Assembly: GCA_017509755.1 (NCBI GenBank)
Contig: JAFWOY010000027.1
Coordinates: 1,983-65,982, forward strand
Length of the DNA: 64,000 nt
From: Bacteroidales bacterium
GTDB lineage: Bacteria; Bacteroidota; Bacteroidia; Bacteroidales; UBA932
Direction of reading: 5' to 3'
Below are positions 7,868-56,001 of the stretch, piece after piece. Within the stretch, counting starts at the first letter, position 1. Every line of letters starts with the position of its first letter. The position numbers and the translations under genes are program-made. The notes under the pieces are model-generated. The model was not told where the DNA came from, did no database searches, and worked only from the letters and a program-made list of their open reading frames with translations.

Positions 7868-7950
7868 ACGCTTTGCTATGCTTTTTCAAGGAAGGAACGG
7901 TACTTTTCGTGCATCCCGAACTGAATCGCAAATATAAGCAAAGAATTTCG

Positions 7951-7958
7951 TATATTTG
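7951..7958 (+). promoter_or_regulatory. Candidate -7 element TATATTTG
   Basis: TAnnTTTG match 19 nt upstream of ATG 7978. Confidence 0.4.
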
Positions 7959-7977
7959 AAGGTATAAAACACGCATC

Positions 7978-9246: not shown

Positions 9247-9251
9247 TTTGT

Positions 9252-12200
9252 ATGAAACGGATTTTGCTTCTGTTTGCCGCCGTGCTGGCTGTCACTGCCG
9301 TATCGGGGCAGAACCTTCGTTTTGCGAGTCGTCCCTCACTTTCGCCAGACGGTCAGACACTTTATTTCTCATACCTGGGTGATATCTATACGGTCCCTGC
9401 CACTGGCGGACAGGCCATGAGCCTTGTCGCCATGCAAGGGAAGAAGAATCATCCGCTCGTGTCTCCGGACGGAAAATGGCTTGCCTTTTCTTCTGATATC
9501 AATGGAAACCAGGATGTATTTGTCGTTCCCGTAGGGGGAGGACAGGCTGTCCAGCTGACATATCACGAGGCCAATGATTTCCCGGTCTCCTGGTCGCCCG
9601 ATGCGAAAACCCTCTATTTCGAGTCCCAGCGATCAGGTTCACGCCGGACGACCTATTGTGTATCCGTGACGGGCGGTACGCCGCAACTGCTGTTCGATGG
9701 TTATTTCACGACCGTGGTCAATCTGGTCGAGAATCCGAAAGACGGTACGTTCTATTTCAATGAGTCGGCCGAGAGCATCAATTTCCCGACGCGCAAACGC
9801 TATGTCGGCGACCATAACCCGAATATCCAGTCGTGGAATCCCAAGAAGAGACAATACGCCGCGCTGACGGACTATGAAGGCAAGGACACATGGCCGATGG
9901 TCGATTCCAAAGGTACGCTGTATTATGTAACCGATGAACTGAACAAGGAGTCGAACATCGTGAAATACGTTCCGGGGGAGAAACCCGCCTATCTGACACG
10001 TTTCAACAGTTCGGTCCAATATCCGCGCATCGCCTGGAACGGTTCGAAGATCACGTATCTGCTCGATTATGAGATTCACGTGCTGGATCCCGCCAGCGGG
10101 AAAGATGTGGTTCCCCACATTGTCGTGACCGCTCCGGATCCTTCGGTCCGCAGGTCGTTCGAGAAACAGAATCCTTCTGCCGGAGCGGTTTCGCCCGACG
10201 GCAAGAAACTTGCTTTCGTCGTCCGGGGTTTCCTGTATGTAACGGATACCAAGGGCAAATTCTTCCAGCGTATGGCAACGCCCGATGATGAACGCGTTCA
10301 CGAGGTCATCTGGGGCGCTGACAACAAAACCCTCTATTACACCCGGACCCAGCACGGCTGGGTGGATCTGTTCCGCATTTCAGCCGACAACAAGGGCACC
10401 GAAACGGTCGTCTATACTTCGCAGGCCAATGTCAAGAGTTTAACGGTGTCGCACAAGGGTGACAAGATCGCTTTCGTTGATGGAAGCGACCGCGTCATGC
10501 TGTACGATGTGAAAGCCGGAACGACCGAAAAGATCGCGGATGCCGAGTTCTGGTCCTTCCAGCAATACGACCTTTCGTTCTCGGGCGATGACAGTTGGCT
10601 GGCTTTCGAGGCCATGGACCGTTTCGAGCCCGACATCTTCCTGTATTCGTTCGCTGACAAGAAACTACTGAACCTGACGCACTCCGCTTCGACCGAGCGG
10701 GAGCCGGTATTCTCGCCCGACGGGAAATATCTGTATCTGATCGCGTCCCCGACAACCTCCTCATTCCCGCGTGGTTACAGCGGACAGCTCTACAAACTGG
10801 CCCTGCAGAAATACGACACGAAATTCAAATCCGATACGTATGACCAGTTGTTCGACGCCAAGAAACCATCCAAGGATTCAGTCGTACGCATCGACACGAA
10901 GGATATTTTCGAGCGAATGACCCCGGTTGAACGCAGCGGCCGCCAGATGGGCCTGCACCTGTATCAGGCCAAGGGAAAGACGCTGCTGCTCTACACGTCC
11001 TTCTCGGACGGAGTACGCGAGGTTCGCGCCCTGGACATTGATGACCCGGAAGCCAGGCCGAAGGCCATTAAAGGTCTTGCTCCCGGTGCTTTCTTCAGTT
11101 CGAAAGAAGGTCTCTATCACCTGACACGCGGCAAGGTCAACAAGATTGATCCGAATTCGTTGAATGCGACGGAGGTCCCGGTTACTGTCAATGTGGACAA
11201 GACGCTTTCCGACGAATTCTCCCAGATGTTCTATGAGACTTGGGCGACGTTGGCCCAGAATTTCTATGATGTCAACTACCACAGTGCTGATTGGACGGCA
11301 GTCCGCGACCGCTATGCGGCATTCCTGCCTGATATCAAGAGCCGGGACCAGCTCCGTACCCTGATGGCTGACCTGTTGGGCGAACTGAATTCCTCTCACC
11401 TGGGTTTCAATTCGATGGGGGCAGAAGAAAGGACCGAGACCCGGATGCATTCCATCGTAACGGGCATCCTGTTCGACAACAAGGATCCTTATGTCGTGGC
11501 TTCCATCCTGCCCGGATCGACCGCCGATAAAGTTGAAATCGACATTCGGAAAGGCGACCGCCTCGTGGCTGTCGATGGCGTACGTACCATGCCTTCAGTC
11601 AATCGCGAGAAATATCTCTCCACGCCCTTGCAGAAAGAGGAGGTGAAACTCACGTTCAATCGTTCCGGCAAAGAATTCGATGTCAAGGTCCACACCATGC
11701 CGCAGATGGCTTTCCGCAACCTGCAGTACAAACAGTGGGAAGACGCCTGCAAGGCTAAAGTGGAGAAGGATGGAGCAGGGAAGATCGCTTATATCCATAT
11801 GCGTGCGATGGGTGGGGAAGACCTGGATTCCTTCCTTACGCAGATGCACACCTATGCGGTTAACCGGGATGCCCTGATTCTCGACCTGCGTTACAATAAC
11901 GGCGGCAACGTGCATCAGGAGGTCATCGACTTCTTGCGACAGAAACAGCACTTCCAGTGGAGTTACCGCGGTTTTGCCAAAGTGTCGCACCCCAACGTAA
12001 CTCCTTCAGACAAGCCGATCGTCGTGCTTGTCAACGAACACAGCCTCAGTGACGCGGAAGTGACTTCCAATGGTATCCAGACGCTGGGCCTGGCCAAACT
12101 TGTCGGTACGGAGACCTATCGCTGGATCATCTTCACTTCGTCTGTCGGTTTGATTGACGGTTCGTCATCCCGCATGCCGGCTTGGGGCTGCTACAACAAC

Positions 12201-16840: not shown

Positions 16841-16842
16841 GG

Positions 16843-17700
16843 TCAAAACAATACGCCAACACCCGCGCTGGCTTCGAGATACTTGAACTGATTGGTCCGA
16901 ATACCGGCTGATACGGCAACCGCATTCAATCGAAGCAGAAGACCGAATTCCAACTCAATGCCGGAGAAAGAATGTGTGCTGACACGAGCATACTGGTATT
17001 CCCCAGGGGCCATATACATTTCCCAGGCAAGGACACGGCTGCCATAACCACCTCCAGCATAAAGATATAGGGGGACAGCTAATTGTCTCAGGTAGCCCCC
17101 GGTAATGGCAAAGCGGCTTTTTCGGGAAGCTCCCGTGAACCAGGCTGTTTCGCCATCGACAGTTCCATCTCCTGAACAGTTGGATGATGGTTTGAGCATA
17201 CGATGGAAATCGCTTACGATATGGACATATCCGCCGTTTATTGTGCAAAGACCCAACATCAGCCCATAGGAAGTATGGGGCAGATTATACTGCACGGTCG
17301 GCAAAATGAGGGTATGGATGGGATTTGCGATGTCCAGAGAGAGGGTATAACCATAAGCGGGCATCAGCGGCTTGTCAAGCGGGAAAACAAAGTGTAGAAC
17401 CGCATAGCCGTCTACGCTGATATCAATCCATTTAGAATTGGCCGGTATGAAAACGACCCATTCTCCCGGGTATTGCAAGGGCTCTCCAATGATATTGCCG
17501 GCAAAATGAACGGAATCTTCTGAGGAGAGATAGATACTGATCATAGCAGAGGGTTGGCCGTTCTGATCATAGACCGGGGATGTCTTTGCCCTCAGTTCAA
17601 AAGGATTTACTTCAAAACTTCGTACGAGAAGGCGCTTTTCCTGGGCATGCAGGAAAAAAGGCAGGAAAAGGAATGCCAGCAGGAAAACAGCCTGTCTCAT
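16843..17700 (-). CDS. Exported protein, N-terminal beta-sandwich-like domain + C-terminal OM beta-barrel-like domain
   Basis: Signal peptide MRQAVFLLAFLFLPFFLHAQ. The C-terminal half has alternating hydrophobic strands and Gly/Tyr-rich turns and ends in ...SAGVGVLF (terminal Phe, typical of OM beta-barrels). ATGA overlap with the upstream gene. Confidence 0.7.
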   Translation of the reverse strand: MRQAVFLLAFLFLPFFLHAQEKRLLVRSFEVNPFELRAKTSPVYDQNGQPSAMISIYLSSEDSVHFAGNIIGEPLQYPGEWVVFIPANSKWIDISVDGYAVLHFVFPLDKPLMPAYGYTLSLDIANPIHTLILPTVQYNLPHTSYGLMLGLCTINGGYVHIVSDFHRMLKPSSNCSGDGTVDGETAWFTGASRKSRFAITGGYLRQLAVPLYLYAGGGYGSRVLAWEMYMAPGEYQYARVSTHSFSGIELEFGLLLRLNAVAVSAGIRTNQFKYLEASAGVGVLF

Positions 17701-18695
17701 TTGCCGATTCTGAAACTGTTGATGTCAATAATCTGGTTTTCGTCAAGCGCGCGGGTCCGTTCTTCGTCCATCCAGTAGGGTTGCCAGGTCCTGACGTGGA
17801 TCTGCGGTCTGTCTTCGTCCCTAAAATCCCAGAGCATAAACAAATAGCCTTCATCGGAATAGGGGATACCTCCGTCATAGAGAGATTCATAGCCCTGTTT
17901 TAGAAGAACCCCATAATAACCTTCAATGGAAGGATGCTTTGTTACTCGTATGTCGCTGAAATCAACCCGGATATATTTCGTATGCGGAAAAATGTGCTGT
18001 TTCAGTCTGTCGAGATACGCTTTTTTGGAATGCTTTGTATAAGCGATTTCATCGTTTATAATCGCAGTCCTGTCGCCGCGTTTCCTTTGAATAACCTTCC
18101 CGGTAATGATCAAAGCATCGTCGCTGAACACCATGTCCAGAAAATGGATATCCTTCTTGCAGTATGCTGTACGGAATTGCTCGACATAATCGAGGATCAT
18201 CTGCCGATGCCGCAGGTCGCCCACTTTACTACCGTCCGTCATGATTCTCCTATACAAATGGGAACCGATGGCCATATTGATGCGGGTAATGCGGCCGGAA
18301 CCGTCCATTTCGATCACAAGTTCCTGATAGTCATCGTTTCCTTGAAGATCCCGCATTTGGATTGGTACGTTCCTGACCTGCCAGCCGCCATTGTAGGTCC
18401 CGATAATCCGTTCCACGACCTTCGCTTCGTCACAATGAAAAGGCATGTTATCCCATAACACGATCACAGAAGTTTCGGCGTCTTTCGTAATGGAGACCGC
18501 TGAAAAATCGGGTATGGCGCCTTTCATGTCATAAGCCCGGTTAAATTCTGTCAGCAGCAGGGAAAGGTTGGCGTTGATCTTGTCTTTCAGCGGGCCGTTT
18601 TCCAGGCCGTCATTAATCAGAAAGGTAACCGTCTGCGCAGATAGTGCGGTATGTATGATGAGAAGCGCGACAAGCAGAAAGAAAGATCGTTTCAT
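17697..18695 (-). CDS. Exported hypothetical protein (C-terminal NTF2/SnoaL-like fold suspected)
   Basis: Signal peptide MKRSFFLLVALLIIHTALSAQ. RHRQMILDYVEQFRTAYCKKDIHFLDMVFSDDALIITG resembles the start of NTF2-like (DUF4440-type) domains. ATGA overlaps at both ends. Confidence 0.7.
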   Translation of the reverse strand: MKRSFFLLVALLIIHTALSAQTVTFLINDGLENGPLKDKINANLSLLLTEFNRAYDMKGAIPDFSAVSITKDAETSVIVLWDNMPFHCDEAKVVERIIGTYNGGWQVRNVPIQMRDLQGNDDYQELVIEMDGSGRITRINMAIGSHLYRRIMTDGSKVGDLRHRQMILDYVEQFRTAYCKKDIHFLDMVFSDDALIITGKVIQRKRGDRTAIINDEIAYTKHSKKAYLDRLKQHIFPHTKYIRVDFSDIRVTKHPSIEGYYGVLLKQGYESLYDGGIPYSDEGYLFMLWDFRDEDRPQIHVRTWQPYWMDEERTRALDENQIIDINSFRIGK

Positions 18696-19396
18696 TGTAG
18701 CATTTGCATGATAGTTTTGTCAACAAAAATCCAATAAGCAGGAACCATCCTATATTTCATCGGGTCCGTCAACGATCCGGATCGTATATTTGTCCTTACC
18801 CCCATGGAATCTCTTGGTGACATGATCTCGATGATACGGTCTGAAGAGTGTTCGTAATAGACCAGAAATCCGCCATCCACATATTCCTGGGGTGTCTCGA
18901 TCGTAACCGGTCCCGACATGATATGAGCTTTTGTTCGGGATGTTGGGAGCAATTCCTGAATGTCTGACAGAGTCTCGATTTCGGGCAGCTGGCGGAAAAA
19001 CTCCAGAATGGCATTTCGACTAACATGATCGAATGCCGCCGCTTCAATCTGTTCCAACTCCCGGAGATGCGACTTGCTGATATAAGCAATTGTCCGGTAA
19101 TGATTAGGATCTTTTCTCATCGTGATAAGCTGGATCACCTCTGGCGGACAAGCACTGGCTCCACGAATATACACAAAGCCATTCTCTTTCAGATAATGAG
19201 CCAGACGGTCGTTCAAGTCAAGCGTGGCTTCGACAACGGATTCTTCAAGGTCGGGCATCGTGCAACTGCCATACAGGTAGTCCGGATCAAGCTTGATAGC
19301 AGCCATCCGCGCAAGAAGCGAGTCTTGCGACTGTCCGGCTGCATACTGGAAAAAGAACATTCCGGCAAGAATAAACAGGATTAGTACTTTACGCAT
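18692..19396 (-). CDS. Exported hypothetical protein (234 aa)
   Basis: ATG 19396 gives the signal peptide MRKVLILFILAGMFFFQYAAGQ. The longer ORF-track start at 19510 would overlap the TIR gene by 130 nt and lacks a signal peptide. Confidence 0.65.
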   Translation of the reverse strand: MRKVLILFILAGMFFFQYAAGQSQDSLLARMAAIKLDPDYLYGSCTMPDLEESVVEATLDLNDRLAHYLKENGFVYIRGASACPPEVIQLITMRKDPNHYRTIAYISKSHLRELEQIEAAAFDHVSRNAILEFFRQLPEIETLSDIQELLPTSRTKAHIMSGPVTIETPQEYVDGGFLVYYEHSSDRIIEIMSPRDSMGVRTNIRSGSLTDPMKYRMVPAYWIFVDKTIMQMLQ

Positions 19397-20301
19397 TTTC
19401 CCAGCTGTTTGTCCAACTCGATGTCGGGATAATCGCCCAACTTGATGAACGCTATTTTTTCTCCATCGGCATGGTGCCATTCGCCGTAATTCAGGTGACC
19501 GCGAGTCCAATTTCCAATAATATAATCCCCGACTTCCGCAGTTCGTGCCTGAGGATCGTGCATATCGATACGCCGACGGTGCATAAAGGTGTAAGTGCCA
19601 CTTCCATCGGGCAATCCGGATATGATTGTCCCGGTAAACGTATCGGTGTCAGGGCCCGTACGGGGCTGTTCCTTGACAATTACTATTTGTGGCGGCCTGT
19701 TTCGGATCACTACGGGTTTTTCCACCACGAAGGTATCGAAGGCAGGAGGTGATGAATTCACAGGCTCCGATGCAGGCCGGTTATTTTTGATCCAAGGGGG
19801 CAACAACAAGAAGGCTGCGAGTGCCAAGATACCCAACAAAGGGAGGATGAAAAGCCGTGCTTTATTGCCTTTAGCGGGCGATTCTGAAATGCTGACAGGT
19901 AAATTGCCATTCTGCTGCTTAAGAATGATCTTCTCAAGCACGGCAAAGTCTTTCTTGAAGTCCCCCGAATAGGGGATTCGCTGTTTATAAGAAAGGTAGT
20001 ATTCCAGATCATCGTCGAAGGGCGTATCATCCAGGCAATAGGGGAGAATGAATTTGGAACTGTTGAAGGCCAGGTTGATTTCTGTCTTTACATGCTCCGA
20101 TTGGCTCGCGTTCTTGGAACAGATGACGACAACGAGGAGGGCCGCACGGATTGCACGTGTGATTTCGCCCGCATAAGAGACGCCTGATTGAATGTCGCGA
20201 GGTGCAATCCAGCAGGAAACATCATGTGACTCTAGCCAGTTGCAAAGGGATTCGGCAATCTTCCGGTCCCGCCGTCCATAACTGATGAAGACTTTGGTCA
20301 T
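19381..20301 (-). CDS. TIR domain - single TM - MORN-repeat membrane protein
   Basis: ATG 20301 forms ATGA with the upstream stop. KVFISYGRRDRKIAESLCNWLESHDVSCWIAPRDIQSGVSYAGEITRAIRAALLVVVICSKNASQSEHVKTEINLA is a TIR_2-type pattern. TM helix LFILPLLGILALAAFLLLPPWI. MORN-like YIIGNWTRGHLNYGEWHHADGEKI. Confidence 0.8.
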   Translation of the reverse strand: MTKVFISYGRRDRKIAESLCNWLESHDVSCWIAPRDIQSGVSYAGEITRAIRAALLVVVICSKNASQSEHVKTEINLAFNSSKFILPYCLDDTPFDDDLEYYLSYKQRIPYSGDFKKDFAVLEKIILKQQNGNLPVSISESPAKGNKARLFILPLLGILALAAFLLLPPWIKNNRPASEPVNSSPPAFDTFVVEKPVVIRNRPPQIVIVKEQPRTGPDTDTFTGTIISGLPDGSGTYTFMHRRRIDMHDPQARTAEVGDYIIGNWTRGHLNYGEWHHADGEKIAFIKLGDYPDIELDKQLGKCVKY

Positions 20302-21290
20302 GCAAAATCTTTCCAGCTCAATTTCTTGCCGCAGGAAGGGCAGTATTTCATATTCGGCGCTACCGGCCCTGAACAATGGGGACATTTGTAGCTCTCTCCA
20401 CGTGAGAGGTTGAATCCCAGCTTCTTGACGAGTCTCAGCGCGTCGAAGGCGGTCCGTCTGTCATATTCTTTTTCTGATTCTGGCAAGTCGGAGTAGGGGA
20501 CCATGTCAGGATTCTGCTTCAGCCTGTCATCCCGGAGGGGGCCATAGCTCCAGCCTTCTTTCTTGCGTTCGGCAGCCCATACTTCATGGGTATTTTCCGC
20601 GATGGTTTCAGTCAGTTCAAGCAATTCATCATCGAGCAATACATCTGTCAAATCAATCGGATGTGGATCATAGGCCAAGGAATCGATATCCGAACTAACC
20701 AGATAACGCCGTGAGGCGCGCCATGCTTCCAGGAAATCTTCGATCAGCCAGTCCATGTCTTTTTCTTCAGCCGGATCGTAGATTTTTATCAATCCGCCGA
20801 CCAAAGAGAGCGGGACGACTGCATGAAAACGGTTATCCCGTGCGATGACCGCAATCATTTTCACCCGGCGGAGCATATTGATTCGAATGTCTTCAACCGT
20901 ACAATCATATTTGCGGCAAACTGACAGACCGTGTTGTTCCAGAAGACGGCCGATATTATACAAAGGCATGCCTTCCTTTCGTAGCCAGCGGTTCGTGCTG
21001 ATATCGATGGAAAGAGTATCATCATCTACCAGATAGTCACGCAAGATCCGTTGCTCGCATTGGATGTCGCACAAGTTGTCCTCTGAGGCGGCGGCTAATT
21101 TCGCCATCGGAATACCGGCGCCTTTCGATTCTTCATATCGGTCAATGCAATTGATGATGAACAAAGTCTCACGCAGCGATTCGTCATGTGCAAGTGCTTC
21201 AACCACTCGCATTGTCTCCTCCGGGGTTGTCGTTCCCTCCGTATAGGCCGCTAACAGCTCGTCGGATATTTCGTAGCGATTATTTTTCAT
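20298..21290 (-). CDS. Anti-sigma-like N-terminus + C39/papain-like segment + RyR domain + zinc ribbon (soluble)
   Basis: ATG 21290 overlaps the sigma gene stop by 11 nt. ISDELLAAYTEGTTTPEETMRVVEAL is anti-sigma-like. TETIAENTHEVWAAERKKEGWSYGPLRDDRLKQNPDMVPYSDLPESEKEYDRRTAFDALRLVKKLGF is a near-consensus RyR domain. CPHCSGPVAPNMKYCPSCG is a zinc ribbon. Confidence 0.8.
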   Translation of the reverse strand: MKNNRYEISDELLAAYTEGTTTPEETMRVVEALAHDESLRETLFIINCIDRYEESKGAGIPMAKLAAASEDNLCDIQCEQRILRDYLVDDDTLSIDISTNRWLRKEGMPLYNIGRLLEQHGLSVCRKYDCTVEDIRINMLRRVKMIAVIARDNRFHAVVPLSLVGGLIKIYDPAEEKDMDWLIEDFLEAWRASRRYLVSSDIDSLAYDPHPIDLTDVLLDDELLELTETIAENTHEVWAAERKKEGWSYGPLRDDRLKQNPDMVPYSDLPESEKEYDRRTAFDALRLVKKLGFNLSRGESYKCPHCSGPVAPNMKYCPSCGKKLSWKDFA

Positions 21291-21852
21291 AATACTTGAC
21301 ATCTTTTTGTGCAACTTGCGTGAATTCGGCGATAGCACGCCTTTTAATGTTGTAAAGTGTCGCAGCCGTGATCTTCATTTCATTGGCGAGCTTTTCCGGC
21401 TCCATGTCATTAAGGATCAATTGTTGAAGAACATAGGCGTACCTTTTGTTTTTCATCCGGTGCAAGATCCGGAGCATGTCTTTCCTCGCAGTATCGCGCG
21501 TAGGGCCATCGGCCAATTTTTCTTCTGCTACTTTGTCCAAAAGAGCATCCTGGCTACGTTTCTCTGCCAGATTGTCTCTTTTTTTGATAAAAAAACGAGT
21601 TGCACTGACTTTTATCCAGCCAAACAGCGAACTACGATCCCGAATTTGACGGAGTCTGTAGCCATCGTTCTCAAGCAGGTAGGCATAGAACTCACTGACA
21701 GCTTCTTCATACTCGACCGGGTAAGGGAAAACATAATTCAGAATGTTCATTAACAGGAGTTTGCAAGATTTTTCCTTATCGGAAAAAAAGAAATGCCGGG
21801 TAATCCGTTCATCCTTGGAAAGCAGTCCTTCGATGATTTCGGTTTCAGTCAT
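21280..21852 (-). CDS. RNA polymerase sigma-70 family (ECF-like) sigma factor
   Basis: 190 aa from ATG 21852 (ORF-track start 21903 is TTG). Region-2-like SSLFGWIKVSATRFFIKKR. Region-4 HTH-like RYAYVLQQLILNDMEPEKLANEMKITAATLYNIKRRAIAEF. Confidence 0.75.
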   Translation of the reverse strand: MTETEIIEGLLSKDERITRHFFFSDKEKSCKLLLMNILNYVFPYPVEYEEAVSEFYAYLLENDGYRLRQIRDRSSLFGWIKVSATRFFIKKRDNLAEKRSQDALLDKVAEEKLADGPTRDTARKDMLRILHRMKNKRYAYVLQQLILNDMEPEKLANEMKITAATLYNIKRRAIAEFTQVAQKDVKYYEK

Positions 21853-21990
21853 AGAGTCGTTTCTCAATTTTATGCAATTTACGACATATTTTGTGAAAAA
21901 CAAAATTTATACAATTTATATTATGTTAAATAGTATTTATCGCGTGCCCCTCCTGCGTTCGATTTGATTCGTGTGACGCAAATTTTTCGT

Positions 21991-24856: not shown

Positions 24857-25531
24857 CTATAAAACAGCCTTTCGGAAGGGAGCGCTCGCTACTTGCGCGC
24901 CCTTGTTGACATAGAGTGTGATCAGCGAGTCAGCAGCAGGGGCAGCCAGGAGAAACGTATGGGAAACGCTGTCATGCGCCGTATCGATCAGGCGCAGCTT
25001 CTCGGCCGCATCATATCGCCACTTGCCGTGCCCGAACAAGAAGACATACTCCCCTTTTCCCTTTGCCGCCAATTCAGGCAGCGGTTGCGCGAAATGCCAG
25101 GAGACGGTCTTGCCGTCGCCATTGAACCAGAGGGTATCTCGATCGCAGACAAAGGTACCGTTATGTGCGGCCGGAAAGGGCGTTCCCGGATCCGGCGGCG
25201 TATGGGTATAGGAGCAACTGGAAAAGAAACCGATCAGCAGGATGACCAACGGAATGACGATGAAAATCAGGACGAATATCCAGCATCCGATTTTCCGGCC
25301 TTCTTTTTTAGGCGCGGCCTTTCCTTCCGGGCGAGACGGCGCCTTTTTCGGCTTCGGTTCGGGTGTTACTTCCCAGGTGGAGAGCGTAACCACGCCGGGC
25401 GCATCGGAAGCGTGGACTACATCTTTATCACCGGACTGCGGGGTAACCGCGGCCGTCACGCGCGTGCCGCAATTCGCGCAGAATTTGGCGCCCGGTTCCA
25501 GTTTTGCGCCGCAGTTTGTACAGAATGCCAT
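24857..25531 (-). CDS. Zinc-ribbon - TM - extracytoplasmic domain protein
   Basis: ATG 25531 (ORF-track start 25546 is TTG). CTNCGAKLEPGAKFCANCG zinc ribbon, Lys/Pro-rich linker, TM helix IGCWIFVLIFIVIPLVILLIGFF, then a ~110-aa C-terminal domain. Confidence 0.7.
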   Translation of the reverse strand: MAFCTNCGAKLEPGAKFCANCGTRVTAAVTPQSGDKDVVHASDAPGVVTLSTWEVTPEPKPKKAPSRPEGKAAPKKEGRKIGCWIFVLIFIVIPLVILLIGFFSSCSYTHTPPDPGTPFPAAHNGTFVCDRDTLWFNGDGKTVSWHFAQPLPELAAKGKGEYVFLFGHGKWRYDAAEKLRLIDTAHDSVSHTFLLAAPAADSLITLYVNKGAQVASAPFRKAVL

Positions 25532-25538
25532 AATCTGA

Positions 25539-28500
25539 TTAACCAATATTAAACAATGTATCCCCCAACTCTTCCAGCAGTGAATCGCGCGTATAGCCCA
25601 TTCTAGTCAGCATCGCATCCAGTTCCGAAAGTGTACATCCCTTGCTGCCGGGATCGAAGAGTTTCTCACATTCGCTGATAGCCGTACGAAGACGCATCGA
25701 AATCTTACTGCCGCCATTTTCCCCGGCACGGGCGATATCGCGCGGGTTGATGTAATTCTTGAATTGCTTCATGCCCTGCCGGAGTCCTTCCATATATTTG
25801 TTGACGGCTTCCGAACGGAGCGTCAGACGTTCGGTCTCATCCAGGACATTCTCGGCCTGCTTCAGAAGGGAATCTCCCTCCCTGAACCACTCTTTTCCCT
25901 TGTAGGTAACGGCATCCGCCACCTTTTTCGGATCGGACAGTTGCATATGCACCTTCTGGGGATCCATCAGGATGTCGATATCCTTTCCGTAGCTTTCAGG
26001 ATGGTTCAGCACATCTTCGATGTTGGTCTGGTCGATGGATTTGGCAAACTTGTTGGACAGTTCTGCACTCTTGCTCCGGAAGCCCAAGCCCGCATCCGCA
26101 ATCTGATGGTTGTAGATCTGGGTGGTCATATTCTGGTCGAAATACACCTTTTCTCCCTTCGCATTGCGGTAGAAATAGGTGACGTCCCGGTCGATGGTGA
26201 CCTTCTTGCCTTTCCGCATCAGGTCCAGGTCGGCATTCTTGCTCGCATTGAATACCTCAATCCGATCGGCAGGGATTCCGTAGATCTGGCTCAGTGTCTT
26301 CTTGGCATTGAGGTCCGCTTTCGCGTACATTTCCCCCAGCGTCTCATTCAATTCTTTGCGGGTAAGGTCCAAGGAATCGTCCGCATAGTTCTGGAGCAGA
26401 TACATCGCCTGCTTGTTTTTCTGGCATTTGATGACCAGCTGGTTCTTCAGCTTCAGGTTCTCGGGACTCATCGGATTCATGTGGTACAGTTCCACAGCCG
26501 CCTGTAAGTCCTTGACATCCTGCAGCGCACGCTTCCGGCCGTAATCCACCGCATCGTCCAGCGGATTCGGCGTTTTCTGGGACTTGACCAGGTCCATGAA
26601 CTGGTCTGCATTCCGGCTGGCGGCATCCATGGCATTCTTCGAATTCTGGATGGCGTTCTTGGTGACCTTTCCTTTGATGGAACTGAAGAACTCACCGGCC
26701 TCCGCCTTCATCTCCTGGAAGGCGTCTTTCAGGCTATCCTTAGTAATACCGGCCTTGGCGGCCATCTCCCCCACCTTCTTCATTCCGAAGGCCATTCCCT
26801 TCTCCATCAGATACTCCCGGCCAACAATCTTGGCGCCGACGCAGAAACCGCCCCAAACGCTGTCACCGCCCTTGTCCACATATTCCTTCATGCTCCGCGC
26901 TACCTCCAGGGTCGTGAAGACGACATCCGCACAACCCAAAGTAGCCACACCCAAGGCGAGACGGCTGAAGAAGCCCATGGAATCTTCGACCTCTTTCGCT
27001 TTGTCGAAGAAACAGGAGACAAACAGGAGCACCTCATCCGCAATCGTCAGCGGCTTGACGTCTCCGTTGGCCCCGAAACTCTCTCCGGAAACGACACCGT
27101 TGAAGATCCGCTTCACGGTCTCGACCTGCTGGGGATCGTAACCATAGTCGGCACTGTAGCCGTCCACGATCGTATCGATGAACTTGTCGAGCGAGAAGAG
27201 CTGCCGGTACATGTTCAGATAATGGATCTGGCTCTGGATATGAACCAACTGCTCGGAAATGTGCTGATCCCGTTTGAGGGCCTCCATATATTCCGATGTC
27301 GGCAGGTCACGCCGGGGCTGGGAACACAACAGGACGTCCGCATACCCATAATAATCACGCCCGTTGAAGGAAGTCTTCAACATGATCTGGGCCTTGATGC
27401 GGGAAGGAGCGTCAAGCGTGGCCTGGCAGCAGCGGAAGAAACAGAGCCGGGCCCGGTCTTCGATTGTTCCACTGCTTACGTCACACTGGATGGCAAGTTT
27501 GTCCACCATATCCTGCTTGGTGTCATCCAAGGCCACAATCTTGTAGTCAGTCGGGACTGGCGCAATCTCAAGTACCTTGTGCTCATTCTCGTCATAATCA
27601 AAGAGCGTAATCCGGGCCTTGGTCTCGGCGGGCACATAGGTTTTCCCGTCCATGCCTTTCGCGGCAAAACGCCGGGTCTGGTGCCGCGAGGGGTCATATT
27701 CCTCTATAAAACACTTGACCTCATAAATGCCAGCCAGTGCAAGACCCATCTGGAAGCGCAATACTTCCAGCTCGTTCTCGATGGCGCTCCCCTTGCCGCT
27801 CCGGGCCGTCACTTTCAGGGAGTAGCGCTCGAATTCACCAGGCATCAGGGTCGGAACTTTCTCTCCCGGCTTTGGAGGAATAAATTTCTCTGTTATGATA
27901 GCCTCGTGCAGTCGTGTCTCCTTGTTCCACGTCGTTTTCACTTCATAGCGCCCACCCGGAATTACTGCTTTGACCTGGGCTTCCTCATCCATGCCGACAA
28001 CCAGGAACGGCAAATGGATGGGTTTGTCGTACCCCACGGGAATTGTCAGGTTATCCTGGCCGAAGACAATCGCCCCGGCCCTGATTTTGAAATGCACGTG
28101 GTTCGTATAGGATCCTTTCCCACCGGCCAGCCGGAAGGTTACGACACCTTCTTCCGGTGCTTTGTCCGTCTCCGGGGCAACGACATCTGCGGCTTTCCAT
28201 CCTTCATGAAGTGCCGCGTGGGGAGAGACTTGCAGATAATTGTCGCCCGTGACGGTCAACATGGAAGTCAGCTGAAGGTCGGGCGTCTCTTCGCCCTGTG
28301 ACGGAATCTTCACGATCTGGGCATAGACCTGACGAGGCCCGTTGCCGGGAATGAGCGTATCGCCAAACTCCTTGTACATCCGCATCGCATAACGGACAGC
28401 CGGCTGATTGTCTTCTTCCTCTTCTTCTTCCGGTTCTTGATTGCCGGCATCTCCGTCGTCCGATGGCGCGGCCCGGCGTTTTCTCCGTCTGCGGATTGCA

Positions 28501-29186
28501 ATGCCTGTTATACCGGCGATGACAGCAGCCGGGATGACGTAATCCATCCATCCTTCCCATTCGAAAGCTTTGTTGTCTTCCTCGAATTGGCTGTTCCCCT
28601 CGTCCTCGCCAACACCATGTTTCTTCTTTCCAAAGCCCAAGGGCGACTTGGTTTCTTTTTGGGGTTTCGAATCCGCATTCTGATCGACCTTGTAATCGAT
28701 CATGACAGCCACACCGCCACCCATGGGAGCCCAGTCGATACCGCCTGTACTGGAAAAGCCGAGTTGGACGCTCACCGCTTCCGCCCCATCAGGCACCGTA
28801 TAACTGGTCGACAACGACGGAAGTGTTCCATGGGGGCCGTCTTCGCTCCTGCTGGCAGGCGTTTCTTCCCAGTAATGACTTCCTTTCATTACCACCGAGA
28901 CCGTGATATGTGCCTCGTTGGCGCCTATCCCGTCTTCATCGGAGTAGCCTCCCAAAGCTTTCATACTTAGGGTGATGGTTTCCCCCGGCTTGATGGTTCC
29001 TTCATATTTCTTGAAGTTGGATTCGTGGTCCAGGAAATCATTCACAAACTCGAACTTGCCGCCCTTGAAAGAAAAGGAGGCTTTGGCTTTGTTGGATTCC
29101 AACGTCACGCTGTCAGCCTTCGCGGCAGGAGCACAGCATAGCCAGGCGGCAAGGCAAAGGACGGTGATGAGAACCTTATTTCGCAT
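25539..29186 (-). CDS. Giant type-I membrane protein (1215 aa), function unknown
   Basis: Signal peptide MRNKVLITVLCLAAWLCCAPAAKA and a ~190-aa external domain. TM helix YVIPAAVIAGITGIAI followed by RRRRKRR and EPEEEEEED. Beta-rich middle region. The C-terminal ~510 aa are paralogous to the C-terminus of the 1155-aa protein. Confidence 0.75.
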   Translation of the reverse strand: MRNKVLITVLCLAAWLCCAPAAKADSVTLESNKAKASFSFKGGKFEFVNDFLDHESNFKKYEGTIKPGETITLSMKALGGYSDEDGIGANEAHITVSVVMKGSHYWEETPASRSEDGPHGTLPSLSTSYTVPDGAEAVSVQLGFSSTGGIDWAPMGGGVAVMIDYKVDQNADSKPQKETKSPLGFGKKKHGVGEDEGNSQFEEDNKAFEWEGWMDYVIPAAVIAGITGIAIRRRRKRRAAPSDDGDAGNQEPEEEEEEDNQPAVRYAMRMYKEFGDTLIPGNGPRQVYAQIVKIPSQGEETPDLQLTSMLTVTGDNYLQVSPHAALHEGWKAADVVAPETDKAPEEGVVTFRLAGGKGSYTNHVHFKIRAGAIVFGQDNLTIPVGYDKPIHLPFLVVGMDEEAQVKAVIPGGRYEVKTTWNKETRLHEAIITEKFIPPKPGEKVPTLMPGEFERYSLKVTARSGKGSAIENELEVLRFQMGLALAGIYEVKCFIEEYDPSRHQTRRFAAKGMDGKTYVPAETKARITLFDYDENEHKVLEIAPVPTDYKIVALDDTKQDMVDKLAIQCDVSSGTIEDRARLCFFRCCQATLDAPSRIKAQIMLKTSFNGRDYYGYADVLLCSQPRRDLPTSEYMEALKRDQHISEQLVHIQSQIHYLNMYRQLFSLDKFIDTIVDGYSADYGYDPQQVETVKRIFNGVVSGESFGANGDVKPLTIADEVLLFVSCFFDKAKEVEDSMGFFSRLALGVATLGCADVVFTTLEVARSMKEYVDKGGDSVWGGFCVGAKIVGREYLMEKGMAFGMKKVGEMAAKAGITKDSLKDAFQEMKAEAGEFFSSIKGKVTKNAIQNSKNAMDAASRNADQFMDLVKSQKTPNPLDDAVDYGRKRALQDVKDLQAAVELYHMNPMSPENLKLKNQLVIKCQKNKQAMYLLQNYADDSLDLTRKELNETLGEMYAKADLNAKKTLSQIYGIPADRIEVFNASKNADLDLMRKGKKVTIDRDVTYFYRNAKGEKVYFDQNMTTQIYNHQIADAGLGFRSKSAELSNKFAKSIDQTNIEDVLNHPESYGKDIDILMDPQKVHMQLSDPKKVADAVTYKGKEWFREGDSLLKQAENVLDETERLTLRSEAVNKYMEGLRQGMKQFKNYINPRDIARAGENGGSKISMRLRTAISECEKLFDPGSKGCTLSELDAMLTRMGYTRDSLLEELGDTLFNIG

Positions 29187-29790
29187 TTTTGCAGCGGGAT
29201 TTAATGAAATCGTACACGAAGTCGAAATCTTCTTCCGGTACGTAGATCTGGTTTTTGTTCAGCAATTGGTTGACCTTGATCAGATGGAGTGAACGACGGG
29301 GTATAACGCGGCGGACATGGGCATACTCGGACGTGCTGGAGGTCTTGCCGGAGGCCAGAAGACCCGCGCCTGCTGCCGTCGGTTTCTTTGCAGCGAGACC
29401 TACCAGCGTGGTAATCAGACTGATTGCCTGTGCCTTCTTGACTTGACGCGGCAACTGGATGTGTTTGATCTCCTGCTCGTCCATCTCAAACAGGACGACA
29501 TACTTTCCTCCATAGAGGAGCGCCAGGAACAGGACTCCCAGCAACGTCAGTCCCGCCATGATCGCGAGCGCGACCAGCATGCCTTTGCTCATATCGAGAA
29601 AGCCTTCGAAATCGCCGTGGATGAGATACAGGAATGTACCGAAAATCAGCCATCCCGCAAGGATGATGTATAAGAAAATCTTGAATACGGTCAGGAAGAT
29701 AGTGGGATTCGTGAGCATGTTCATCTCGTAGACCCAGCGGTATTTGCCGTCATCGCAAAGACGGACGCGGGCATCATCGTTTTGCTTCAT
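29176..29790 (-). CDS. Small membrane protein with two TM helices (204 aa), function unknown
   Basis: TM1 NPTIFLTVFKIFLYIILAGWLIFGTFLYLI and TM2 MLVALAIMAGLTLLGVLFLALLY. The soluble C-terminal ~90 aa may be bacterial-PH/YcxB-like (low confidence). The start shares 1 nt with the upstream stop (TAATG), and the stop overlaps the next start by 11 nt. Confidence 0.65.
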   Translation of the reverse strand: MKQNDDARVRLCDDGKYRWVYEMNMLTNPTIFLTVFKIFLYIILAGWLIFGTFLYLIHGDFEGFLDMSKGMLVALAIMAGLTLLGVLFLALLYGGKYVVLFEMDEQEIKHIQLPRQVKKAQAISLITTLVGLAAKKPTAAGAGLLASGKTSSTSEYAHVRRVIPRRSLHLIKVNQLLNKNQIYVPEEDFDFVYDFIKSRCKNAK

Positions 29791-32700
29791 TACTTGCCGG
29801 AAGGATTAAAATTAGGATTGAATTCTCGGATCAGGTCGTTCACGACCTGCATGGCGTCTTTGCCGCCCGTATCCCGCTGGATTTCGCGGTTCAGGCGATG
29901 GATTTCCGTCGGATTGCTGGTCTCTTTACCGATTCTGCCCAGTTTCTTGCTCATGTCCTGCCAGTATTCGATATCACCGGCAATCCTTTCAGCTTCCTTT
30001 GCATTGGAGGCGTTCTTGAGTTCCTGTTTCAGTTTCGGAACGAGCATGTTGTCGATTTCCTTGGTAGATTCGCGGCATTTGGCCTGCATCTTCGTCGTCT
30101 CGGTCATCCGGATATTACCCTCGATGGTATTGACCTTTGATTCAAGCACCTTGCCGATGCTGGCGATGTCCTCCGCCTTCAGTTTCGAGTAATCCACATC
30201 TTTCTTCAGCAGTTCCGGCGTACTGTACGCCTCGGGATGGGCGGACGTAGTCAGGTTCATTTCGGAAGCCTTGGCGCTGAGGCCCTCATGCTGCTGCTTA
30301 TAAACCGTATTCATTGTCTTCTGGGCGTCATTCATGAATTCCCGGGCAGTCACCTGTTCGCCGTTCTTGTAGAACACGGGCTCCTTGCCGGTGCTTTTGG
30401 AAACAGGAGCCAGGTCGAGATCCATACTGGAAGAACCGGAACTCGACGAGTTGCGGAACTGTTTGAACTCGATGTCGCTCATATCATATCCCTGTTTGGC
30501 AAGCGATTCGGACATCTTCGGCGTCATTTCCCGGTAATTCGACTGGACGGCCTGGTCGAAATGCGCCCGCTGCATGGGCGTGGCCTTGTATTTCATATAC
30601 CACTTGGCGTGATAGTCTGAATTCATCGAAGCCGCCAGTTGGTTGATCTGCTTCCGGGTAGCGTCCAGGGTAGCCTGCGGTGTCTTCTTGTCCGCCAGCA
30701 TCGTAATATATTCGTCGTTCAGTTTCGAGAAAGATTTGACGGCATCTTCCGCCTCCAACCGTTCGCGCTGGGTGCGCAGCACATCGAGTTTCTGCCTGCC
30801 CGTGCTGGACATGCCTTTGGTCAGATTGAAATTCACGATACCGTCGGGCAGGAAAGCGGAGGCCGTCTTCGCAACACCTGTTGCAGCGATTTCCATCCCC
30901 TTCCCGATCAGGTAATCCATACCGGCTTTCTTGGTCCCTTCCCAGATCTTTTCATAGGTTGACATCCCTTCGGTCCCTTCAGCGGTATAGCCTTCAATGA
31001 AAGAGGCGATGCCGCCTGTGACCGGATGGAAATAGCCCGCCGCCGAAGATGCTGCCTTGCCGGGGCCGCCGGCGATGTAGCCGGTCACACCGCCATAGAC
31101 GGCACCGACGGCGCGGGAACCCCAGATGGTAGCCGCGGTACCGGCACCGTAAGCGCCGGCCAGCGCTTCGCCGGCCAGACCGACGGTGATGGAACCGCAT
31201 GCCATGATCACAGCGTTGGCGCCCGCCTCTTTCAGGTCAGCCCATGCGACTTCGTCCTGGGCTTCAGCCTGAACCTTCAATTCGTGGCCCAGAATCTGGT
31301 TGTTGAAGGCATTAGCCAGTTTGCGCGCTTTCTCGATATCACCCGAGGCCAACGCACCGTCTTCATAGAACATCTTTTCAGCCCGATCGCGGGCAGCATC
31401 CCGGTCTTCTTCCGGCAGTAAGTTGATCTGCCGGTCGATAATGGCCGCCGCCTTCTTGGTCTGGATGTAGCGTTCGGCTTCCACCTTTGAATCGTGGATC
31501 ATTTTGGCGTTGGCATACTGTTCGAATTCCGTACGCGTGTGGACGAACTGCCCTGTCTGCAGCTGACGGATGTTGTCGCGTTCACTCTGAATATCGGAAC
31601 GCTGATACATGATGCGCCGGTTGTAGTCGTCGATCTCCTGCTGGATCCATTGGCGCTCCTGTGCAGTCTTGGCGGATGACAAGCGCCGCATCGCGTTGCT
31701 CCTTCCCTCTTCATCGCGCCGGATATTGTTCTCGATGAGCTTGATGTTCTCTTCGCGCCAGGCAATGGATTCCTGTTTAGATTTCTCTTCGAAAGCCAGC
31801 GAGTCCTGCACCTGCTGCTTGCGGGCTGACGCCTGGTCGAAAGCTGCCTGCGCGGCCTGGGTATCGGCGCCGGAATCATCTGCTTCATCGTTTTTCTTCT
31901 TCCGGTTGCCACCCAGCCGGAGTTTCGGCAGATTCTTGGCATTGGCAGCTTCAATGACTGCCTGTTTCTTGAAGGCTTCCTCCAGATCGTCGATCAGCTT
32001 GTGCGGGACGACACCGTCGTCTTTCCAATCATAGCTGTTGAACTTGTCCTCCATAGCCCAAAGGAGCGCGGTCTTGAAAAAGACACCGGCACGCAGGACA
32101 CGATTCCCGTAATGCGCGGCCATCTCATGGTATTTCTCTTTGCGCGCCGCATAATTCGGATTCTCTTTCCGTTCCTCGTCCGAGACATACGAGGTCTCGT
32201 ACTGCCGCATCAGGTTCATCGTCATCATCGTGAGGGCCATGGCCGGCGGTCTCGGATAATAGGTCTGGAAAGTGCCGTCCGACTTGAAATCCGGCATCAG
32301 ATTGCCCTTGTCGCTGAAATACATCTGCTCGATCTTGACATTGCCCACGCCTTGCGGGTCGTTTTCCTTGTCCTCGACCGGGATCCCGTCTTCCTTCAGT
32401 TCCAGTACGAAATAGCGGTCCTCCCCTTTCACCTTCACCTTCATCAGGTAGCGCATCATCGGCTCGGTGAGCGCATCCAGGCCTTCCACCTGATGCTCCT
32501 TGTCGATGCGCGTACCCATCCAGGTTTCGCCCAGATAGATTTCCTTGGGCTTGAAGGCCCGGCGGTAGCGGTCACGGGCTGCCTGACGTGCCTCGAACGG
32601 ATTGGGCGGATTGCCCAGCGCCAGGATGCGGTTGGCCAACTCGTCCATCGCCGCCTCCAGTTGCTTGAGCGTACCCGTATAAAGTTTGGCCTGGAACATC

Positions 32701-33257
32701 GCGGAACTGAAAGCTTCCTTGTCCTCCCATCCCATCGCCTCGGCCGCATCAAAAGAGAGGAGTTCCACGTTCGACACACTGTTCAGGTAGCTCTCGCGGG
32801 CCACGATGAACTGGCTCAGGAGTGGTGTCAGTTTGTTCATGTAGTCGATGATCTCCTGGGTCGGATTGTCAAAGAGCGGCGCCCACATCTTCATGAACTG
32901 CTCCGCATCCTTTTCGCTCATCTCGCCGTAGATGATGCGCAGGCATTCGAATGCCACGGACACGGCCATATTGTATTCGATCGTCGAGATCTTGGACACG
33001 TCCGGCAGCGGGGCCGGAATAACGGCCTTGACGCCTTCCGGCAGTTTGACCGGTTCGGTAGAGACAGTTTCCCAAGGCGTGCCGTCGGTCTTCTGGTTTT
33101 CCTTGGCATAAGGGTCGTCGGCATTGAACTTGACCGTTGCCGTCTTGAGGGAAGGCATCTTCAGGTTCAGTTTCTTTTTGCTCTGCGCCAAGGACGGATT
33201 CACGGAAATCACAAAAAGCGCCAGCAGCACAGAAAGTACGGAGAAGAGTCGTTTCAT
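29790..33257 (-). CDS. Giant secreted/membrane protein (1155 aa) with coiled-coil region and glycine-zipper segment, function unknown
   Basis: Signal peptide MKRLFSVLSVLLALFVISVNPSLAQ. Long Glu/Arg/Gln-rich helical stretch (res ~470-670). Gly-zipper GAYGAGTAATIWGSRAVGAVYGGVTGYIAGGPG. The C-terminal module is paralogous to the 1215-aa protein. Confidence 0.75.
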   Translation of the reverse strand: MKRLFSVLSVLLALFVISVNPSLAQSKKKLNLKMPSLKTATVKFNADDPYAKENQKTDGTPWETVSTEPVKLPEGVKAVIPAPLPDVSKISTIEYNMAVSVAFECLRIIYGEMSEKDAEQFMKMWAPLFDNPTQEIIDYMNKLTPLLSQFIVARESYLNSVSNVELLSFDAAEAMGWEDKEAFSSAMFQAKLYTGTLKQLEAAMDELANRILALGNPPNPFEARQAARDRYRRAFKPKEIYLGETWMGTRIDKEHQVEGLDALTEPMMRYLMKVKVKGEDRYFVLELKEDGIPVEDKENDPQGVGNVKIEQMYFSDKGNLMPDFKSDGTFQTYYPRPPAMALTMMTMNLMRQYETSYVSDEERKENPNYAARKEKYHEMAAHYGNRVLRAGVFFKTALLWAMEDKFNSYDWKDDGVVPHKLIDDLEEAFKKQAVIEAANAKNLPKLRLGGNRKKKNDEADDSGADTQAAQAAFDQASARKQQVQDSLAFEEKSKQESIAWREENIKLIENNIRRDEEGRSNAMRRLSSAKTAQERQWIQQEIDDYNRRIMYQRSDIQSERDNIRQLQTGQFVHTRTEFEQYANAKMIHDSKVEAERYIQTKKAAAIIDRQINLLPEEDRDAARDRAEKMFYEDGALASGDIEKARKLANAFNNQILGHELKVQAEAQDEVAWADLKEAGANAVIMACGSITVGLAGEALAGAYGAGTAATIWGSRAVGAVYGGVTGYIAGGPGKAASSAAGYFHPVTGGIASFIEGYTAEGTEGMSTYEKIWEGTKKAGMDYLIGKGMEIAATGVAKTASAFLPDGIVNFNLTKGMSSTGRQKLDVLRTQRERLEAEDAVKSFSKLNDEYITMLADKKTPQATLDATRKQINQLAASMNSDYHAKWYMKYKATPMQRAHFDQAVQSNYREMTPKMSESLAKQGYDMSDIEFKQFRNSSSSGSSSMDLDLAPVSKSTGKEPVFYKNGEQVTAREFMNDAQKTMNTVYKQQHEGLSAKASEMNLTTSAHPEAYSTPELLKKDVDYSKLKAEDIASIGKVLESKVNTIEGNIRMTETTKMQAKCRESTKEIDNMLVPKLKQELKNASNAKEAERIAGDIEYWQDMSKKLGRIGKETSNPTEIHRLNREIQRDTGGKDAMQVVNDLIREFNPNFNPSGK

Positions 33258-33282
33258 GGGTGAGGATGAAGGAATGGTTTCT

Positions 33283-33290
33283 CAAAGTTA
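33283..33290 (-). promoter_or_regulatory. Candidate -7 element (TAACTTTG on minus strand) for the 1155-aa gene
   Basis: The plus strand reads CAAAGTTA, 25 nt upstream of ATG 33257 and directly after the potD terminator T-run. Confidence 0.4.
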
Positions 33291-33291
33291 C

Positions 33292-33324
33292 AAAAAAAAG
33301 ATATTCAACGGGATTGAATATCTT
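33292..33324 (-). terminator. Rho-independent-type terminator after potD
   Basis: The minus strand reads AAGATATTCAA-tcccg-TTGAATATCTT followed by a T run (plus-strand A8 at 33292-33299), 23 nt after the potD stop. The stem is AT-rich (2 GC pairs), so its strength is uncertain. Confidence 0.45.
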
Positions 33325-54970: not shown

Positions 54971-54977
54971 TATTCTC

Positions 54978-55994: not shown

Positions 55995-56001
55995 AAGGCA
56001 C

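Follow-up and report, generated by a model that had tools for sequence, protein, structure and literature searches.

We have analyzed a window of 64,000 nucleotides from a Bacteroidales bacterium (assembly GCA_017509755.1, contig JAFWOY010000027.1), in which four closely linked minus-strand genes that we call A, B, C and D encode two giant and two small proteins. Sequence comparison places the giants A and C in a large undescribed superfamily that carries an undescribed C-terminal domain (CTD), because tests of membership in known families failed or were undecided for everything except a zinc ribbon in D. The best reading of the four products is a role in sensing or in the envelope, and not in metabolism. 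We tentatively propose, with a probability of roughly 0.35, that A and C are single-pass receptor-like membrane proteins with a cytoplasmic enzymatic output.

The giant proteins share a C-terminal domain with invariant residues

When the families of A and C were aligned with hhalign, residues 607-1146 of A ran collinearly with residues 650-1211 of C (probability 94%, E = 1.3e-7). By this comparison A and C are remote paralogues, related across their final ~540 residues. A preliminary description of this DNA had already regarded the giant proteins as paralogues; this stands at the level of profiles, but the relationship is invisible to BLASTP, where A against C gives next to nothing (E = 0.02).

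Within the last ~330 residues of the joint alignment D946, D948, K1041 and K1066 (numbered as in A) are invariant. Conservation was measured over 141 CTD sequences, each representing a cluster with less than 50% identity to the others. The same four residues are 100% conserved in this set; conservation is 99% for N936, E1009 and R1062, 94-96% for K885, K889, R935 and S939, and 89% for H1007. Because charged residues are held invariant across such divergent sequences, the set suggests the signature of a catalytic site or of one that binds metal, phosphate or a cofactor. This contradicts the earlier statement that the proteins lack enzymatic motifs. So strongly conserved a constellation of catalytic type also makes a purely structural complex unlikely.

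AlphaFold2 (AF2) predicts the CTD (residues 823-1155 of A) with a pLDDT (predicted local distance difference test) of 92.2 and a predicted template modeling score (pTM) of 0.86. The model comprises four long helices, a small five-stranded sheet, a loop containing H-P-E and then six helices, with the sheet bearing the R-N-x-x-S and D-x-D sequences. Foldseek found nothing at E ≤ 0.001 either in the PDB, where the best hit had E = 0.045 and a template modeling score of 0.18, or in BFVD. Searches of the PDB by phmmer and by profile gave no genuine match, no recurring family emerged from 25 CTD sequences scanned with Pfam, NCBIfam and PADLOC, and we found no description of the family in the literature. 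A match to DUF7623 in some relatives was rejected as spurious; it covers a 37-residue helical stretch and belongs to a protozoan repeat family. The four complete proteins compared with Pfam, NCBIfam, PADLOC and PHROGs gave a sole match, the zinc ribbon of D, and the best match in PADLOC-DB 2.0 had E = 0.69. The products are thus uncharacterized, as had been stated, and the structure searches proposed at that time assigned neither full-length A nor its CTD to a known system. The CTD is a previously undescribed domain with no known relative in the databases compared, and the model is probably that of a new enzyme fold.

The CTD bears some likeness to the core of the Pol-beta nucleotidyltransferases (NTases). 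Pol-beta-like NTases carry the motif hG[GS] x9-13 [DE]h[DE]h, with a third carboxylate on a neighboring strand. The local arrangement of the CTD is similar, with a helix, strand beta1, a Ser-rich turn (R-N-x-x-S), strand beta2 starting with D-x-D and a later Glu. Unlike the NTases, the CTD does not conserve hG[GS] but has R-N-x-x-S in its place, and the spacing from there to D-x-D ranges from ~4 to 16 residues among CTD subfamilies. None of the Pfam NTase families matches the 25 CTD sequences at E ≤ 10. The likeness is one of motifs, and both the fold and the profile tests of it failed.

A large family with changing partners

A profile search with the CTD returned at least 684 representative clusters (50% identity) at a threshold of E ≤ 1e-3, and 534 when this was tightened to E ≤ 1e-10; the counts of architecture that follow are drawn from the best 150 of the 684 matches. 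Every full-length protein among these has the CTD at its extreme C-terminus, and most are 1,000-2,500 amino acids (aa) long. The N-terminus resembles a signal peptide in 92 of 110 full-length proteins, and the N-domain, helical region and Gly-rich region of A are found together in 108 of 111. Ahead of these lie variable N-terminal extensions with TPR, HEAT, PKD, PPC and MIT modules, and also with DUF5648, PG_binding_1 and a galactose-binding-like domain. All named members of the family are called hypothetical or are named for their repeats only, and the family represents a sizeable blind spot in annotation.

Genome matches were obtained in Bacteroidales, Proteiniphilum, Parabacteroides, Prolixibacteraceae, Draconibacterium and Prevotellaceae, with matches of 25-37% identity in Acidobacteriota, Syntrophaceae/Smithella, Armatimonadota, Desulfobacterota and Methylomirabilales. 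The A-type family is therefore present in Bacteroidota, Acidobacteriota, Desulfobacterota, Armatimonadota and others, and is not lineage-specific as had been suggested. The carriers belong mostly to diderm phyla, with a few matches from metagenome-assembled genomes (MAGs) labeled Bacillota. There was no family match in plasmids and phages by tblastn, and none was found in IMG/VR viral contigs scanned with A1.

The small proteins encoded beside the giants recur, but in changing combinations. Among loci flanked on each side by 2 kb or more of sequence, a B-like gene lies near 15 of 24 C-type genes and a D-type zinc-ribbon gene near 14 of 24; for A-type genes the corresponding figures are 11 of 52 and 8 of 52. 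The recurrent partners are B-like proteins, family f2 (two transmembrane (TM) segments and a C-terminal zinc ribbon), families f1 and f30 (an N-terminal zinc ribbon and about four TM segments, the ribbon of f30 being nearly identical to that of D), and LemA with DUF3137. A further family of giants, f18, is the third of its kind; it has the layout of C and is followed by f2 and f30. We considered whether B, D, f1, f2 and f30 are one family and rejected this, the zinc ribbon alone being common.

Two larger groupings of partners were observed. Six contigs from rumen metagenomes (L015, L099, L102, L105, L124 and L131) share a conserved group of seven genes for small proteins, next to a single C-like giant or two in tandem; the products have 217 (B-like), 222 (zinc ribbon), 85 (zinc ribbon), 161, 253, 237 and 163 aa, and the gene order differs between contigs. 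A Parabacteroides-like MAG (L005, L006 and L035) has a longer cluster ahead of an A-like gene, at ~6300-13650 in L005. It encodes a B-like protein of 252 aa, a zinc-ribbon protein of 292 aa, a 148-aa homologue of the C-terminal domain of D, LemA and a protein similar to DUF3137. Beyond the A-like gene lies a zinc-ribbon fragment of 43 aa, and the cluster is flanked by AAA_21+RloB, PDDEXK/restriction endonuclease (REase) and GIY-YIG genes.

Some members of the family have an unusual N-terminus. The lack of a signal peptide in P0226 was considered as evidence for a cytoplasmic form and rejected; its signal peptide and N-terminal domain are encoded in an overlapping upstream open reading frame (ORF). 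In L140 (Candidatus Oleimicrobiaceae) an ORF at 7495-8013 overlaps the giant gene at 8001-11591 by 13 nt, and holds a signal peptide and a small N-terminal domain with the motif GxFxFxxPxxW. Either a frameshift or a gene that is truly split could account for this arrangement. Several other members of the giant family open with the same motif.

The four genes are not a fixed unit

The genomes nearest to the window are MAGs of uncultured rumen Bacteroidales. Its closest relatives at species level (L008-10, with A 90% identical) have the order potABCD-A-B-MATE-RarA, without C or D. DNA alignment places the left junction of the C+D segment exactly after the stop codon of B, and the segment is an insertion or deletion relative to these genomes. 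At the same locus L020-23, where B is 71% identical, have potABCD-B-MATE and neither giant gene; in such B-only relatives B starts 5 nt after potD. L024 carries B'-A between potD and MATE, and B also precedes A in L029 and L051. In an unrelated context L019 and L098 have B, a C homologue and a truncated D-like gene, with no A. The C homologue of L019 is 69% identical to C and is preceded by a zinc-ribbon-B fusion, and the B/C overlap sequence ATGCGAAATAA is identical in these relatives that lack A.

Of the relatives, L097 alone carries the complete set A-B-C-D; this strain has ~99% identity throughout the region. The preliminary description had envisaged a conserved system of four genes, and had taken their failure to co-occur elsewhere as the observation that would speak against it. 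The genes do separate in relatives, where we see B, A-B, B'-A or B-C-D', and the four-gene unit fails. A-B and B-C-D thus behave as separable units with B in common. The rumen locus thus provides a natural experiment, existing as B only, A-B and A-B-C-D.

The ectodomain of C is exchanged between strains

Outside positions 29400-28500 the window and L097 are ~99-100% identical, but from 28500 to ~27150 identity is 90-95%. The most divergent tract (Table 1) takes in the last ~70 codons of B and residues 1 to ~230 of C, which include the signal peptide, the ectodomain and the TM segment. The ectodomain of C (residues 1-212) is 58% identical to that of L097, while the remainder of the protein is 96-100% identical. 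It is 68% identical to that of P0091, yet the rest of P0091 is only 22-39% identical to C. On these comparisons the ectodomain is a swapped cassette that moves independently of the remaining protein, and its exchange points to the pattern expected of a recognition module.

We also considered whether B of the window is a recombinant of A-B and B-C-D units, and rejected this. It is uniformly closer to the B of L008 and has no internal breakpoint, although the tract that is variable with respect to L097 does begin in its 3' end.

A also shows two dips in DNA identity to L097, to 87-95%, at window positions 33151-33300 and 31201-31500. They correspond to its signal-peptide region and to residues ~586-690, and the remaining A is 99-100% identical. 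A partial protein of 749 aa, P0048 (named peptidoglycan-binding protein by NCBI), is 89% identical to the first ~690 residues of A, and ends in PG_binding_1 where A has its Gly-rich region and CTD. Either the domains were truly swapped here or the assembly is chimeric.

Predicted membrane topology and a proposed receptor-like arrangement

Hydropathy analysis finds a signal peptide or TM segments in each of the four products, as had been reported. C has a signal-peptide-like N-terminus and an internal TM segment at residues 213-231, with eight Asp or Glu residues before it and a count of six basic residues after it, where the sequence RRRRKRR follows. Since this is the charge pattern of a stop-transfer sequence, everything that follows, including the CTD, would be cytoplasmic, unless a weak charged segment near residues 739-757 also crosses the membrane.

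The N-terminus of A also resembles a signal peptide, and its hydrophobic stretch is internal and Gly-rich. This region (residues 676-760) is 22% Gly and contains the motif [GAS]xxx[GAS]xxx[GAS] 13 times, with overlaps. It includes one uncharged TM-like window at residues 678-700 with a Kyte-Doolittle (KD) value of 1.69, preceded by acidic and followed by mildly basic residues, so sharing the acidic-then-basic polarity of the TM segment of C. In the hhalign comparison this helix (MACGSITVGLA) stands opposite residues of C that are charged (DKAKEVEDSMG), and the anchor of C would therefore have moved upstream. If residues 678-700 make a single pass, the topologies of A and C would converge on a cytoplasmic CTD. 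Neither signal peptide has a lipobox Cys in the right context. The AF2 model of full-length A has a pLDDT of 71.7, with no confidence at residues 669-726 and 779-825. As to the coiled coils of the preliminary description, the model shows only long helices, at 475-674; Foldseek against the PDB gave no significant match to the whole chain, only insignificant ones to the long helices.

The small partners can be oriented in a similar way. D has an N-terminal zinc ribbon, a Lys/Pro-rich linker, one TM segment and a C-terminal domain of ~120 aa. The ribbon, proposed earlier from inspection, is confirmed as PF13240 (Zn_Ribbon_1) at residues 3-24 counted from the ATG at 25531, with E = 2e-9 and 37.4 bits against a Pfam cutoff of 25. 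With six Lys or Arg residues before the TM segment and none after it, the ribbon is predicted to be cytoplasmic and the C-terminal domain periplasmic. The latter is 36% identical to the separate 148-aa protein of the L005 cluster. B has two TM segments by hydropathy. Because a zinc ribbon is fused to the N-terminus of B in L019 and P0139, the soluble N- and C-terminal parts of B are likely to be cytoplasmic. The giant P0242 has a zinc ribbon and TM segment fused at its own N-terminus, and together these fusions argue for a cytoplasmic location of the soluble parts of the partners generally. B partners with both A-type and C-type giants, which have only the C-terminal module in common.

In the receptor-like arrangement that we propose, the N-terminal part would lie in the periplasm. 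In A this would be the conserved N-domain and a helical stalk, in C the ~190-aa ectodomain that is swapped between strains, and in relatives it would include TPR, HEAT, PKD or PPC modules. The membrane would be crossed once, by the Gly-zipper helix 678-700 in A, and in C by the TM segment 213-231 followed by RRRRKRR. The shared C-terminal module would then lie in the cytoplasm, with its final ~330 residues forming an alpha/beta domain with an active-site-like set K885, K889, R935-N936, S939, D946-x-D948, H1007-x-E1009, K1041, R1062 and K1066, which would most resemble a site for Mg2+ and phosphate or nucleotide. B, D and their analogues may dock on the membrane and cytoplasmic module as co-receptors or regulators.

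This proposed layout is the same as that of the PknB-type Ser/Thr kinases with PASTA ectodomains and of receptor-type nucleotide cyclases, with a signal or anchor sequence, a variable extracytoplasmic binding domain, one TM segment and, in the cytoplasm, a conserved catalytic domain whose Asp, Lys and Asn residues could bind Mg2+ and phosphate. Unlike those enzymes, A and C have no similarity in sequence or fold to kinase, cyclase or GGDEF domains, are 3-5 times larger, have a topology that is inferred, and have no identified downstream signaling partner. If the receptor-like arrangement is correct, the CTD would be a new output domain for bacterial transmembrane signaling or immunity.

Among the partners, D and the f1 and f30 proteins resemble YdjG of the Bacillus subtilis pspA-ydjGHI system (PMC9239133) and Myxococcus GltJ (PMC11135422), both zinc-ribbon membrane proteins of envelope systems. 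In each an N-terminal cytoplasmic zinc ribbon is followed by a TM segment and an extracytoplasmic part. The 25-residue ribbon alone is common to them, and the likeness is architectural only. There are no PspA, band-7 or gliding genes nearby.

A number of observations weigh against a receptor-like arrangement. About a third of the relatives that bear a signal peptide have no internal hydrophobic segment at KD ≥ 1.3, the KD of the Gly-rich segment ranges from 0.56 to 2.07 among relatives, and AF2 gives this region of A a pLDDT of 25-31. Many members could be wholly periplasmic, which would rule out chemistry on nucleoside triphosphates. No particular class of enzyme is matched by fold or profile; the NTase fold is not matched by the CTD, the best NTase in Foldseek being mtPAP with E = 1.8 and a template modeling score of 0.19. 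The presumed periplasmic N-domain of A is itself conserved (in 108 of 111 relatives), so that a rule of variable outside and conserved inside holds for C and for the N-terminal extensions and not for the core of A. Finally, no gene for an effector or regulator is evident downstream. Only 27 of the 69 A-type loci examined have a gene on the same strand within the next 150 nt, and clustering at BLAST level finds no partner family at more than 12 of the 69.

In a more specific version, which we think quite unlikely, these proteins would be a new class of transmembrane sensors of envelope attack by phages or competitors, combining exchangeable periplasmic cassettes, a Gly-zipper, zinc-ribbon co-receptors and a new nucleotide-processing enzyme, whose cytoplasmic fold would produce a signal or execute the response.

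Alternative explanations

A and C might instead be secreted bacteriocin-like or AB-type toxins, with B, D and other small membrane proteins conferring immunity, although we regard this as unlikely. The variable N-terminus would bind a receptor, the helical and Gly-zipper region would insert into or cross the target membrane and the CTD would kill. The nearly universal signal peptides, the Gly-zipper region and a catalytic-looking domain at the extreme C-terminus are all consistent with this, but a conserved C-terminus joined to a variable N-terminus is the reverse of the organization of polymorphic toxins, and the N-domain of A is conserved across phyla, unlike receptor-binding domains. Genes for small membrane proteins lie in tight coupling with those of the giants, which would fit immunity, yet by clustering at BLAST level no cognate immunity family is consistently adjacent at A-type loci (at most 12 of 69, with a downstream gene at 27 of 69), and the partner families differ while the CTD stays constant. 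Genomes with B alone would be carriers of orphan immunity genes. The B family gave 1,266 hits compared with 84 for A in the same kind of search, and C gave 10; the excess of B over A would fit this explanation, as would presence and absence that differ among close relatives. However, the position of B 5 nt after potD in B-only genomes is that of an ordinary operon member, and A diverges no faster than the genes that flank it (83% DNA identity to its orthologue, compared with 75-81%). Tandem giant paralogues and the cassette of C swapped between strains also favor toxins, and the L005 locus adjoins RloB/AAA_21, restriction-endonuclease-like genes and a transposase; but the internal stop-transfer segment in C and f18 would hold these proteins in the inner membrane of the producer.

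Searches for known toxin features in A-D were also negative. They have no known trafficking, type IX secretion or toxin Pfam domain, and neither Por_Secre_tail nor a Pfam Gly-zipper family matches at E ≤ 1. Foldseek with full-length A failed to match the fold of the alpha-pore-forming toxins (NheA E = 1.5, ClyA E = 3.7), and a match to a type III secretion translocator was below cutoff (Pfam SctB2, E = 0.14, 13 bits against 26.5). A is like the pore-forming colicins and Gly-zipper type VI secretion effectors in having a long helical region followed by a hydrophobic Gly-rich segment, and in the neighboring gene for a small inner-membrane protein with overlapping start and stop codons. A and C differ from them in their conserved part, an additional polar domain of 330 residues that follows the hydrophobic region, in having no immunity family that is consistently present, and in the internal stop-transfer anchor of C. 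If they were toxins, they would add to gut Bacteroidales a new class of large proteins directed against bacteria or eukaryotes.

It is also possible, but unlikely, that the whole giant protein remains in the periplasm as an enzyme or scaffold of the envelope, held to the membrane by a Gly-zipper hairpin of the SlyB type. The CTD would then act on an anionic substrate such as a lipid, lipopolysaccharide or a peptidoglycan precursor, and TPR, HEAT, PKD or PG-binding modules would position the protein. Many members do have a signal peptide and no strong TM segment, but the polybasic stop-transfer sequence of C puts its CTD on the cytoplasmic side if the weak charged segment does not span the membrane too. 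The added TPR, PKD, PPC and galactose-binding-like modules are of kinds usually seen in the periplasm or outside the cell, and P0048 ends in PG_binding_1; on the other side, the conserved parts of the partners are cytoplasmic zinc ribbons, and no Pfam Gly-zipper or envelope-enzyme family matches. The mostly diderm carriers, and the chromosomal location of the genes with none found on phages or plasmids, would suit an envelope enzyme, but variable presence among close relatives speaks against a housekeeping role.

Finally, an anti-phage or abortive-infection module, in which the periplasmic part detects phage entry and the Gly-zipper or CTD depolarizes the membrane or depletes a metabolite, is very unlikely: it would explain the accessory modules, the strain-level variation, the hypervariable ectodomain of C, the defense-island-like setting of some loci and the 8-kb TIR/RyR/LRR (leucine-rich repeat) island 3 kb away, but PADLOC has no match for the four proteins and no recurring family in 25 CTD sequences, most loci lie among ordinary metabolic genes, A is as conserved as its housekeeping neighbors, and such a module would be a special case of a receptor-like protein and not a clearly separate mechanism.

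Organization of the locus

The features of the locus are collected in Table 1. The four genes are co-oriented on the minus strand, and the coordinates first given for A, B and C and all three junctions are confirmed. A and B have 1 nt in common within the sequence TAATG, B and C overlap by 11 nt, and a gap of 7 nt separates the TAA of C from the ATG of D at 25531. Starting from this ATG, D is one residue shorter than the 225 aa first reported. Translation of B is coupled to that of A, which precedes it, and to that of C, which follows. All four ORFs are real genes, since each has conserved homologues. Their G+C content is like that of the flanks, which agrees with the earlier remark that base composition resembles the core genome. 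potABCD lies upstream, and genes for a MATE transporter and RarA lie downstream.

Table 1. Coordinates of the A-D locus in the window, with the segments of the giant proteins
Feature	Window positions	Strand	Residues	Description
Gene A	29790-33257	minus		1155-aa giant protein
Gene B	29176-29790	minus		204 aa, two TM segments
Gene C	25539-29186	minus		1215-aa giant protein
Gene D	24857-25531	minus		224 aa, zinc ribbon and one TM segment
potD-A spacer	33283-33324	minus		Hairpin, T-run and TAACTTTG, read directly from the sequence
C+D segment	24858-29176	minus		4,319 bp, with 31 bp instead in the closest A-B relatives
Hypervariable/recombined tract	28500-29400	minus		DNA identity to strain L097 61-75%
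A signal peptide			1-24	
A conserved N-domain			40-240	
A variable beta-rich middle			244-332	
A long helices			470-675	
A Gly-rich hydrophobic region	30978-31232	minus	676-760	
A conserved CTD	29793-30791	minus	823-1155	
C signal peptide and ectodomain			1-212	
C internal TM segment			213-231	Followed by RRRRKRR and a poly-Glu linker
C beta-rich middle			266-650	
C shared module			650-1211	Homologous to A 607-1146

The spacer between potD and A contains both the terminator-like hairpin and the promoter-like element noted in the preliminary description. After the stop codon of potD there is an AT-rich hairpin, AAGATATTCAA-tcccg-TTGAATATCTT, and then a T-run, at 33324-33292. The hairpin was not picked up by a generic terminator scan because it has too few G-C pairs. 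It is followed by TAACTTTG at 33290-33283, 25 nt before the ATG of A. The -7 consensus of Bacteroides is TAnnTTTG, and we take TAACTTTG to fit this box as a candidate promoter element.

Two patches of low G+C content are present elsewhere on the minus strand of the window. The first is an 8-kb island at 13865-21903 (0.46-0.49 compared with ~0.55), between the genes for Peptidase_M28 and RarA, which are adjacent in the relative L008. It encodes a 993-aa LRR and EF-hand protein, three unknown proteins, a TIR_2 protein (19381-20385) and a RyR-domain protein (20298-21338), and looks like a conflict or defense island. The second, at 53594-57030 (0.43-0.45), encodes two proteins without a Pfam match and a BspA-type LRR protein of 469 aa.

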